A DNA stretch of 64,000 bases from assembly GCA_963695095.1 (NCBI GenBank), contig CAVOFT010000001.1, forward strand, positions 1,024,001 to 1,088,000. The letters are read 5' to 3'. Source of the stretch: an uncultured bacterium. Its GTDB lineage: Bacteria; Krumholzibacteriota; Krumholzibacteriia; JACNKJ01. The translations under genes and the position numbers were made by a program. Under the pieces are notes generated by a model. The model did not search any database. It was not told where the DNA came from and saw nothing but the letters and a program-made list of their open reading frames with translations. This document shows positions 4,287-4,511 of the stretch, one piece after another; within the stretch, counting starts at the first letter, position 1, and each line of letters starts with the position of its first letter.

Positions 4287-4361
4287 ATGTTGATCACTCT
4301 ACTGACTGCGCTGATGGGTGCCTACCTCACCAAGACCTGGTGGACCAAGACCTGGTGGTAG
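4287..4361 (+). CDS. 24-aa micropeptide MLITLLTALMGAYLTKTWWTKTWW
   Basis: GGGAGG RBS at 4274-4279, 7 nt before ATG; hydrophobic N-terminus plus doubled TKTWW; paralogous to the next ORF. Confidence 0.75.
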   Translation: MLITLLTALMGAYLTKTWWTKTWW

Positions 4362-4508
4362 GAGAGGTCTGACTCAAACGGATGATCACGCACCCTGGCG
4401 AAGGCGGGGAGTGATCCGACAAGGAGGTCACCAATGCTGTTCGTCTACTTGGCCATGATTTCGACCACTGTACTCACCGCGACCAAGACCTGGTGGAAGA
4501 CCTGGTGG
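4329..4508 (+). repeat. four copies of (ACC)AAGACCTGGTGG in two tandem pairs
   Basis: 15-mers at 4329-4343, 4344-4358 and 4482-4496, 12-mer at 4497-4508; each pair is followed by TAGG. Confidence 0.9.
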
Positions 4509-4511
4509 TAG
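4434..4511 (+). CDS. 25-aa micropeptide MLFVYLAMISTTVLTATKTWWKTWW
   Basis: AAGGAGGT RBS at 4421-4428, 5 nt before ATG; same architecture as 4287..4361. Confidence 0.78.
   Translation: MLFVYLAMISTTVLTATKTWWKTWW

Follow-up and report, generated by a model that had tools for sequence, protein, structure and literature searches.

Micropeptides with a TKTWW tail beside a sigma-54 activator gene in an uncultured Krumholzibacteriota bacterium

Two very short open reading frames (ORFs), ORF1 and ORF2, lie side by side in the 64,000-nucleotide stretch of an uncultured Krumholzibacteriota genome that we analysed, hereafter the window. Each encodes a hydrophobic micropeptide that ends in the residues Thr-Lys-Thr-Trp-Trp (TKTWW). 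Judged by how they vary among relatives, both are genuine coding genes and belong to an undescribed family of micropeptides of 21–28 amino acids (aa), which we call TKTWW-tail peptides. Our favoured reading, to which we assign a probability of roughly 0.4, is that they are trans-acting, membrane-targeted micropeptides controlled by a neighbouring regulator, with the TKTWW tail as their active part. A first-pass annotation of the same DNA had drawn attention to the two ORFs, to a doubled KTWW motif at their ends and to a possible action on the ATP synthase encoded downstream; the finding is real and more than chance, but the emphasis on the doubled motif and the ATP synthase mechanism are not supported as stated.

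Coding evidence and the invariant tail

The two ORFs and their Shine-Dalgarno sequences are the following.

4274–4279 (+): GGGAGG, Shine-Dalgarno sequence of ORF1, 7 nt ahead of the ATG
4287–4361 (+): ORF1, 24 aa, MLITLLTALMGAYLTKTWWTKTWW; 14 uncharged hydrophobic residues, then TKTWW-TKTWW and the stop codon TAG
4421–4428 (+): AAGGAGGT, Shine-Dalgarno sequence of ORF2, 5 nt ahead of the ATG
4434–4511 (+): ORF2, 25 aa, MLFVYLAMISTTVLTATKTWWKTWW; 16 uncharged hydrophobic residues, then TKTWW-KTWW and the stop codon TAG

Both ORFs appear in a mechanical ORF list, and the strong ribosome-binding sites initially described for them are confirmed in the sequence (within that of ORF2, GACAAGGAGGTC is invariant among syntenic loci). 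ORF1 starts 282 nt past the stop codon of an activator gene described below, and each ORF contains two WW pairs, that is, tandem Trp codons in a short frame. The coding unit of the repeat, AARACNTGGTGG, occurs four times in the window, always within ORF1 or ORF2, against an expectation of 0.00 from 100 shuffles. A six-frame scan of the whole 3.64-Mb genome yielded nine K-x-W-W motifs no more than eight residues from a stop codon, five of them in just three small ORFs: ORF1, ORF2 and one at about 2503.9 kb of contig C1. The repeat is not an assembly artefact, because contigs from the RNA libraries of two studies are identical to the window over 4253–4427 and 4268–4453 and a metagenome contig, L182, encodes the identical ORF1 peptide.

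A profile of the family retrieved 17 ORFs from 8 of 208 genomes of the phylum, all eight in the window's own taxonomic family, and nothing else in those genomes. This restriction to one taxonomic family covers the 208 phylum genomes and one patterned metagenome scan, whose 20 loci comprised 6 of the window type, 6 of a second subfamily considered below and 8 that are unrelated. Further small ORFs of the same design (one to three each, behind a sigma-54 promoter) were reached in four more genera by way of the N terminus of the activator.

When the 17 ORFs are aligned, TKTWW is the single invariant stretch. Six members carry a doubled motif, six end in a single TKTWW followed directly by the stop codon and five have three additional residues; the doubled motif is found in 4 of the 12 genomes of the taxonomic family (4 of 208 in the phylum). 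A doubled KTWW, first taken for the conserved feature, does not hold as such: on this alignment the conserved unit is one TKTWW, and the doubling is a local, repeated duplication. An in-frame duplication of 15 nt marks ORF1 in genera g1 and g2, one of 12 nt is private to the ORF2 of this genome, and the metagenome locus L191 has another form; by this comparison the motif has been duplicated in frame independently and more than once.

Selection on the peptide, proposed on the first pass, is borne out in several ways. First, all 17 ORFs start with ATG or GTG and have a GGAG-type ribosome-binding site 5–10 nt 5′ of the start; most of them stop at TAG. Second, orthologues differ in length by multiples of three, ORF1 showing an in-frame 9-nt indel, and the motif is written with synonymous codons (AAA in G003 and L182, ACG in G009 and ACT in the second subfamily), a kind of variation in the Lys and Thr codons that had been suggested as a check. 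Third, comparisons of ORF1 with its orthologues, the near-identical pair G000 (the window's genome) and G010 excepted, give a ratio of non-synonymous to synonymous differences per site (pN/pS) of ~0.2–0.5. For ORF2, pN is about equal to pS (0.16–0.25 versus 0.11–0.35 over the first 21 codons), and the first 16 codons likewise change at the pace of silent sites. The uncharged, hydrophobic character first noticed in the two N-terminal halves extends to the whole family: over the 17 peptides, 2 of 282 residues before the motif are charged or strongly polar, the grand average of hydropathy of this part is 1.4–2.7, and 19–25 residues run from Met1 to the first WW. ORF2 therefore combines fast amino-acid change with hydrophobicity that is nonetheless kept, which suggests that what selection holds is the hydrophobicity of a generic helix together with the exact C-terminal pentapeptide.

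The family, unrecognised at the outset, has no described counterpart in the resources that we searched. Neither ORF matched a Pfam or NCBIfam family at E ≤ 10, a weak negative in that peptides this short are hard for profiles, and none of the papers listed by a full-text literature search on KTWW, TKTWW or the doubled forms was relevant. The pattern WW-x(0,1)-KTWW-stop, run over species genomes, matched at least 119 stretches and gave no family-like small ORF outside the window's family among the matches listed, most of which lie out of frame inside other genes (one recurrent in Pseudomonas), so that absence elsewhere does not follow.

The activator-linked transcription unit

The peptide genes stand between an activator gene and an ATP synthase operon, and the features of the region other than the ORFs themselves are listed here.

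2248–4005 (+): gene for a sigma-54 enhancer-binding activator, 585 aa (Pfam: Sigma54_activat 4.1e-68, GAF 8e-09, HTH_8 1.1e-07)
4012–4018 (no strand assigned): candidate upstream activating sequence 1, half-site GGCGACA, kept in four syntenic loci
4087–4093 (no strand assigned): candidate upstream activating sequence 2, TGTCGCC, inverted relative to the first, kept in four syntenic loci
4215–4230 (+): predicted sigma-54 (−24/−12) promoter GGGCACTCCGGTTGCT, transcription start expected near 4240
4384–4416 (+): predicted inter-ORF hairpin GATCAC ... GTGATC, ending right before the ORF2 ribosome-binding site
4524–4640 (+): four predicted hairpins, 4524–4554 (C-rich loop), 4558–4579, 4593–4613 and 4615–4640 (11-bp GC stem, no U tract)
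4672–4800 (+): third small ORF (42 aa with the TTG start, 36 aa with the ATG at 4690), in frame in 7 loci by pattern and in G002 by eye
4953–4981 (+): putative sigma-70-like atp promoter, TTGATT, 17 nt, TATCCT, adjoining the peptide unit and separate from it
5027–5320 (+): atpZ-like first gene of the ATP synthase operon (PF09527 ATPase_gene1, 1.2e-11, above cut-off), frame kept in relatives

The activator consists of an uncharacterized N terminus of ~100 aa, a GAF domain, an AAA+ sigma-54 interaction domain and a Fis-type helix-turn-helix (HTH). Its best NCBIfam matches, NifA and NorR, fall below their cut-offs, and its residues 1–261 had no matching solved structure. The sensory N-terminal 251 aa occur in 11 of the 12 genomes of the taxonomic family and in 11 of the 208 of the phylum, all from this family. 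Within the window, the promoter at 4215–4230 is the only match to TGGCAC-N5-TTGCW with at most one mismatch, and a sigma-54 promoter is present at 9 of 9 genomic loci of the peptide family (at G009 by eye). Both half-sites are, we infer, binding sites of the activator; the first lies within a perfect palindrome, GGCGAC-N5-GTCGCC, in G011, and the second forms the palindrome GTCGCC-N4-GGCGAC in G001. The activator looks dedicated to this promoter because, among 45 sigma-54-like sites in the genome, it alone has both 7-mer half-sites 40–260 nt upstream. With its −24/−12 promoter, an activator with candidate sites and rpoN in the genome, the unit has the predicted make-up of a sigma-54-dependent one.

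At 8 of the 9 genomic loci, the order is activator, promoter, peptides and atpZ-atpBEFHAGDC, with one to three tandem peptide copies per locus, each with its own ribosome-binding site and followed by a GC hairpin. Conserved linkage to the activator, to the atp genes or to modifying enzymes had been proposed as worth checking; it was found for the activator (8 of 9 loci) and, as synteny, for the atp genes (8 of 9), but not for modifying enzymes (1 of 9). From gene order, the tie to the activator is tight, whereas that to the ATP synthase is synteny within one taxonomic family. The ninth locus, on contig C8 of G001, is a promoter–ORF–terminator module (L126:8050-8740) with neither activator nor atp genes, and looks like a transposed copy. 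It occupies an AT-rich spacer that has a polysaccharide-export gene on one side and a PGA_cap gene on the other. The spacer spans ~400 bp within an otherwise GC-rich genome, and its flanks are a Polysacc_synt gene and an operon of MslH-like PGA_cap, PaaK-like ligase and class-V aminotransferase genes. A terminator also follows the peptide ORF directly in G002, as it does in this module; in G009, a hairpin and a stem-plus-U terminator come after the single ORF, with an opposite-strand ORF beyond them; and in the metagenome locus L191 an unrelated 527-aa gene lies downstream, with no atp genes.

In the window, the sequence after ORF2 folds into four hairpins (−73.3 kcal/mol for 4509–4650; z = −5.67, 200 shuffles). 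Their stems are kept in relatives with different sequences, canonical stem-plus-U terminators occupy that position in G002, G009 and the G001 C8 module, and the hairpins are probably the 3′ end or a stabilizer of the peptide transcript. The C-rich apical loop of the hairpin at 4524–4554, UUCCCCCCGGU, is shared by genera g1 and g2. Some regulatory RNAs have anti-Shine-Dalgarno loops of this kind; no target was found for the one here. We considered the 3′ hairpin domain as a conserved small RNA and rejected this candidate, the domains differing between genera.

Beyond the hairpins, the third small ORF encodes a protein with a basic N terminus, one hydrophobic helix and an A-P-x-K-x-R-W tail. Its length is 35–42 aa in most relatives and, counted from the first start, 55 aa in L158; it has no Pfam family and is represented in the protein database by the window's own 36-aa form only. 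This membrane-type ORF belongs to the same unit as the peptides. Its tail echoes the K-T-W-W tail. Taken together, the stand-alone terminator units (G009, G002 and the G001 C8 module), the tandem copies and this third ORF argue that the product acts as a peptide, and they support a peptide unit that stands alone and would not serve as the leader of a downstream gene.

Contigs from the RNA libraries of four studies fall on 4253–4577 with 0–4 differences, starting at 4253–4268, which is 13–28 nt past the expected transcription start, and one further RNA-library contig covers 4694–4850, the region of the third small ORF. We take these contigs as a hint of expression of the peptide region, not as proof. 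Missing contig cover on the activator and atp genes is unusable, because contigs lose rare sequence and the runs were picked by this stretch.

These libraries also bear on a type-I-toxin action, which was among the initial suggestions. Membrane-damaging peptides of the type-I-toxin or phenol-soluble-modulin kind would lower the proton motive force or kill competitors, as might be imagined for short, very hydrophobic, unprocessed peptides with a Lys/Trp end that are encoded in tandem copies beside an ATP synthase operon and have an amphipathic-looking second subfamily (by eye). The toxin reading nevertheless sits badly with strong, unoccluded ribosome-binding sites and with the presence of the region in the RNA libraries of four studies, which suggests that its expression is tolerated. 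Moreover, no antisense sigma-70-like promoter is predicted across the ORFs, and the genes have a dedicated activator instead of an antisense RNA. We regard such a role as most unlikely.

The neighbourhood of the G001 C8 module raises another possibility from the first pass, that of a peptide made on the ribosome and modified after translation (RiPP) whose TKTWW core would be modified by enzymes encoded elsewhere, for instance through Lys-Trp or Trp-Trp crosslinks; C-terminal Trp epimerization would be a further example. Repeated core motifs are common in multi-core precursors, and PGA_cap orthologues occur in all seven genomes that have TKTWW in both subfamilies (they were not found in G009 or G005). 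The extra G001 copy lies directly upstream of the PGA_cap gene, the product of which has as its best NCBIfam match MslH, a lasso-peptide C-terminal Trp epimerase (2.6e-21, 75.5 bits), and as its only solved relatives the MslH structures 8GQ9, 8GQA, 8ITG, 8GQB and 8ITH (5e-15; entries as identified in the pertinent passages of PMC10406935). The 75.5 bits compare with a cut-off of 700 for NF038314 (MslH), however, and the PGA_cap family is a broad one. Around the orthologues of G000, G010 and G011, small ORFs ending in W are absent out to 1.5 kb (a superoxide-dismutase-like gene is the neighbour in G000); G009 has a peptide and no such enzyme was found there; and the co-occurrence is confounded by descent. 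The N-terminal half lacks a conserved leader motif that could serve as a recognition element, and across the nine loci no radical-SAM, P450, YcaO or lasso genes are linked and PGA_cap adjacency is seen once. With one adjacency in nine loci and three genomes in which the orthologue has no peptide gene nearby, the RiPP proposal comes out weak, and we hold it to be very unlikely.

In genus g5 (L161:1875-2400, L162:1890-2380 and L163:1843-2370), the activator is followed by two sigma-54 promoters and no conserved ORF. The corresponding transcripts, ~170–200 nt long, structured and terminator-ended, occupy the place of the peptide genes and may be sigma-54-dependent small RNAs; as they come without a peptide, the RNA itself might matter. 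Taken to its end, this view makes the transcript in the window a regulatory RNA, with the ORFs incidental or secondary, and it could draw on the very stable 3′ domain with its C-rich loop, on the conservation of the ORF1 start at the nucleotide level and on predicted pairing before the ORF2 ribosome-binding site. Those last elements are specific: the start, ATG TTG ATC (4287–4295), is the same in each of the five aligned g1 and g2 loci as well as in G002 and G003, and is predicted to pair with GTGATC-C-GACA (4411–4420) just 5′ of the ORF2 ribosome-binding site. The arms of the inter-ORF hairpin are kept in 5 of 5 aligned sequences with zero compensatory changes, which leaves its support weak. 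The TTG struck us as an uncommon Leu codon for such a GC-rich genome, an impression and not a codon count. Against an RNA-only role stand the strong coding evidence, the differences between the 3′ domains of different genera and the lack of an Rfam match in the window at 3500–5500. The peptide transcript also shows no better complementarity to the leader of the HD-GYP gene described below than shuffled sequences do (seven genomes; z = −1.9 to +1.1 against 20 mononucleotide shuffles). We consider this account extremely improbable.

As for the neighbouring genes, the conserved block at 4953–4981 is, from its position and sequence, presumably the promoter of the atp operon; it is kept in all syntenic loci, genus g5 has an equivalent block, and a consensus scan raised no flag there (8 of 12 matches). 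At 5727–12243 come atpB, E, F, H, A, G, D and C. A 228-aa ORF at 5044–5730 has no family, lies in the wrong frame and is probably spurious; atpZ at 5027–5320 takes its place. The interval 5320–5727 might hold an AtpI-like gene. On the other side, a DHH/DHHA1 phosphoesterase gene (1177–2160, +; 327 aa) precedes the activator gene, and ORFs of 327–329 aa occupy that position in G001, G010 and G011 (a match of ORF sizes alone). Together with the HD-GYP link set out next, the DHH/DHHA1 gene hints at nucleotide second-messenger turnover, or it may be plain synteny.

A second subfamily upstream of the MASE9–HD-GYP gene

The third K-x-W-W ORF of the genome represents a second subfamily, a 20-aa peptide ending in LTKTWW-stop that a pattern search located in the window's own genome and in five more genomes of the taxonomic family.

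G000 contig C1, ~2503827–2504050 (−; L207:2778-2988:-), outside the window: structured leader of the MASE9–HD-GYP gene, with the 20-codon upstream ORF

The upstream ORF lies ~45 nt before a gene for a MASE9–HD-GYP cyclic-di-GMP phosphodiesterase and, in 11 of 11 sequences, has 19–20 codons and ends in WW-stop. All 12 genomes of the taxonomic family have an orthologue of the HD-GYP gene and 11 have the upstream ORF, which ends in TKTWW in seven and in TKVWW in four (genus g5); G009 has no upstream ORF at its HD-GYP orthologue. Each of the 12 family genomes thereby combines the HD-GYP gene with one or more K(T/V)WW peptides. This subfamily is under strong purifying selection throughout, with pN of 0.00–0.10 against pS of 0.17–0.82 (pN/pS 0.0–0.24).

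In G000, the leader has a sigma-70-like promoter (TTGACA) and two invariant AGCGNAGCG motifs. A predicted 12-bp long-range helix, formed by the 5′ leader and bases after the stop codon, encloses the ORF; 95.5% of its cells are paired, with six compensatory pairs, compared with 28–54.5% when the partner is slid, and RNAalifold predicts the same helix. Its 3′ arm begins 5–7 nt past the stop codon in 9 of 11 sequences and can, by eye, pair alternatively with the HD-GYP ribosome-binding site. Rfam gave zero matches at three HD-GYP leaders. On these features, the leader looks like an undescribed upstream-ORF or RNA switch for the cyclic-di-GMP phosphodiesterase.

MASE9–HD-GYP orthologues occur in 144 of the 208 phylum genomes, and such an upstream ORF in 0 of 18 readable loci of other families. 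At 14 of those 18 loci (L236-L241, L244-L248, L250-L252), we noted by eye a sigma-54-type promoter, TGGCAT/C-N5-CTGCA, before the HD-GYP gene, in the place of the upstream-ORF leader. Control of the gene seems to have been swapped within the window's family.

Given this subfamily, a cis-acting leader role, which the first-pass annotation did not include, is a serious rival. A metabolite or the supply of Trp-tRNA would set whether the nascent TKTWW or the tandem Trp codons slow or arrest the ribosome close to the stop codon, and the stalled ribosome would remodel the RNA to control the third ORF and the atp genes here and the HD-GYP gene elsewhere. In trp leader peptides, the classic sensor is a run of Trp codons in tandem. 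The second subfamily provides the strongest material for such a role, namely a WW-stop end in every sequence ~45 nt before the HD-GYP start, a covarying helix around the ORF and a possible alternative pairing with the ribosome-binding site of the next gene. Of the window-type ORFs, 12 of 17 end in KTWW-stop, mostly TAG, and hairpins or terminators follow them. Other observations on the window-type ORFs speak against leaders: in G009 no same-strand gene lies past the terminator, which leaves nothing to regulate; three codons separate WW from the stop codon in all three G003 copies and in two other ORFs; the 20 nt past the ORF1 stop codon are not conserved; and up to three tandem ORFs with strong ribosome-binding sites are unusual for an attenuator. 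If the 24-residue chain stayed in the exit tunnel throughout, selection for an uncharged N-terminal half would be pointless; the neighbourhood also has no Trp-related gene, and the atp operon has its own putative promoter. We judge cis action unlikely for the window ORFs and give it a better chance for the second subfamily.

Candidate roles and known counterparts

In the favoured reading, that of regulator-controlled membrane micropeptides, the adjacent GAF–AAA+ activator would sense a small ligand, bind the two inverted half-sites 120–200 nt upstream and open the sigma-54 promoter at 4215–4230. A transcript of ~400 nt (~4240–4640) would carry both well-translated ORFs and end in the stable hairpin block. 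Since they carry no charge ahead of the tail and are long enough for one membrane span, the peptides may insert into the inner membrane, in a topology that would place the invariant Thr-Lys-Thr-Trp-Trp at the membrane–water interface as an anchor and as the part recognized by a partner; the remainder of the helix would be a generic hydrophobic carrier. Their action would be in trans, and they would serve this one regulator as inducible effectors in the membrane. As partner, the most concrete candidate would be the MASE9–HD-GYP phosphodiesterase, since the upstream ORF of its gene encodes a peptide that shares the tail, and the ATP synthase would come second as a weaker one. Passages of 10.1101/2021.11.05.467447 propose that MASE9 binds its ligand inside the membrane. 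Among the initial suggestions, the single-pass membrane micropeptide thus fits best, through the hydrophobicity and the Lys/Trp tail, and its toxin variant fits badly; from gene order, the proposed action on the ATP synthase is a matter of synteny alone, atpZ at 5027 lying behind four hairpins, the third ORF and its own putative promoter, and the G001 C8 module and L191 having no atp genes downstream.

Several points weigh against this reading. Known small membrane regulators usually keep one helix face conserved, whereas here the helix varies freely and only the C-terminal pentapeptide is fixed, the pattern of a signal-peptide precursor. The same activator has, in genus g5, two transcripts under its control that look non-coding, and no peptide. 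Members of the second subfamily have Lys3, Asp7 and Asp12, which do not suit a plain membrane span; enclosed as they are by a covarying RNA helix, they suit the role of a cis-regulatory upstream ORF more than that of a subunit. The HD-GYP enzyme itself needs no peptide, given how many genomes have the enzyme and that the 18 readable loci outside the family have no such ORF. The RNA-library contigs, finally, give no strand, ends, level or translation, and may include DNA carry-over.

The first of these points leads to a released signal peptide, in which the hydrophobic half would be a handle for export or processing and a TKTWW fragment would be sensed, for instance by the GAF domain of the activator, by MASE9 or by both. 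By analogy, such a system would be a diderm counterpart of ComR/ComS or Rgg/SHP cassettes or of PatS-type pentapeptides. The arrangement would account for an invariant C-terminal pentapeptide behind a freely varying N-terminal half, for a gene placed directly after a dedicated regulator at 8 of 9 loci with a promoter that seems to be the regulator's sole target, and for the one to three tandem copies and repeated in-frame duplications, which suggest dosage of an active unit. The sensory domain of the regulator and the peptides are, moreover, confined to the same taxonomic family. Two otherwise unlike peptides in one genome share the pentapeptide, as PatS, HetN and PatX share RG(S/T)GR (described in part of PMC7761841), and type-II ComS is likewise a small ORF right after comR with a required C-terminal WW (so the relevant passages of PMC5131902). 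On the other hand, no exporter, processing protease or uptake system is linked to the examined loci, the peptides lack the n-region of a signal peptide, genus g5 retains the activator without these peptides and the second subfamily has an RNA context that speaks for regulation in cis. It also counts against a peptide sensor here that we know of no GAF domain acting as a peptide receptor. We see a released signal as possible but unlikely.

A broader version joins several of these elements: TKTWW peptides would be the signal of a feedback circuit in a diderm bacterium of a candidate phylum, the peptide or a membrane-released fragment being sensed by the activator GAF domain and by MASE9, while, in the HD-GYP leader, these residues would double as a cis-acting nascent-chain switch. 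To our knowledge, no ligand of the MASE9 sensor domain has been reported. We rate the combined circuit as decidedly unlikely; if it were true, it would be a ComRS-like autoinduction loop coupled to cyclic-di-GMP turnover and would supply the first MASE9 ligand.

If the favoured reading of membrane-targeted micropeptides is right, the family would be a cleanly defined group of bacterial micropeptides, missed by standard gene calling, with a dedicated sensor-regulator, a promoter that can be recognized, an invariant five-residue functional tail and signs of its presence in RNA libraries from the environment. Its weight is lessened by its confinement to a single taxonomic family within an uncultivated phylum (8 of 208 genomes). 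It raises questions about the ligand of a lineage-specific GAF-type sigma-54 activator, about the role of a Lys-Trp-Trp tail at the membrane and about whether the same pentapeptide can serve both as a free peptide and in an upstream-ORF switch before the MASE9–HD-GYP gene.

Known systems resemble the family in different respects. With the type-II ComS/XIP (ComRS) system, an analogy already drawn on the first pass, it shares a very short ORF right after the gene of its controlling regulator, a hydrophobic N-terminal half and a C-terminal double Trp, which is needed in ComS (according to the part of PMC5131902 that deals with it). The likeness stays an analogy: membership of ComRS does not follow, because the regulator here is a GAF-containing sigma-54 enhancer-binding activator and not an RRNPP (HTH–TPR) protein. 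The promoter is of the −24/−12 type, and the host is uncultivated and probably diderm. No linkage to Opp, PptAB or Eep was seen at the loci, T-K-T-W-W stands mostly at the very end and there is no detectable sequence relationship.

Leader peptides such as trpL and TnaC are short upstream ORFs with tandem or critical Trp codons near the stop codon, followed by RNA hairpins. The second subfamily fits them best, and the window ORFs have tandem Trp codons too. Unlike in those systems, no trp or tna genes lie downstream, the place being taken by the 42-aa ORF and atpZ–atpC, by a PGA_cap gene or, in G009, by no same-strand gene; the TnaC signature of W12, D16 and P24 is absent; and the window-type copies make up a unit of their own, multi-copy and with terminators, to which no downstream gene is obligatory. 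With MslA/MslH, the system of the lasso peptide MS-271 and its C-terminal D-Trp, the likeness lies in the Trp end and in the one locus beside an MslH-related PGA_cap gene. Lasso cyclase and protease genes are lacking here, the similarity is remote (75.5 bits against 700) and the adjacency holds at one of nine loci.

In heterocystous cyanobacteria, PatS is a short peptide with its active pentapeptide at the C terminus, and PatS, PatX and HetN share that pentapeptide (as set out in part of PMC7761841). The resemblance is that unlike small proteins of one genome share a pentapeptide; the motif (RGSGR), the receptor (HetR) and the biology all differ, and nothing here suggests cell-to-cell transfer.

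The small membrane proteins AcrZ, KdpF, MgtS and CydX are single hydrophobic helices of 20–50 aa that bind larger membrane proteins (as summarized in a section of PMC12648545), and CydX tolerates wide sequence change (reported in part of PMC6005532). TKTWW-tail peptides are like them in being short, hydrophobic, missed by annotation and presumably induced by a regulator. They differ in showing no homology, in having a C-terminal pentapeptide and not a helix face as the invariant part, and in their tandem copies, duplicated motif and stand-alone sigma-54 unit outside the operon of any partner. The family is new, whereas the kinds to which it may belong (small membrane proteins, regulator-adjacent peptide signals and leader peptides) are known. 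What is unusual is the combination of a dedicated GAF-type sigma-54 activator, an invariant TKTWW tail and the reuse of that tail in an upstream ORF within the structured leader of a cyclic-di-GMP phosphodiesterase gene.

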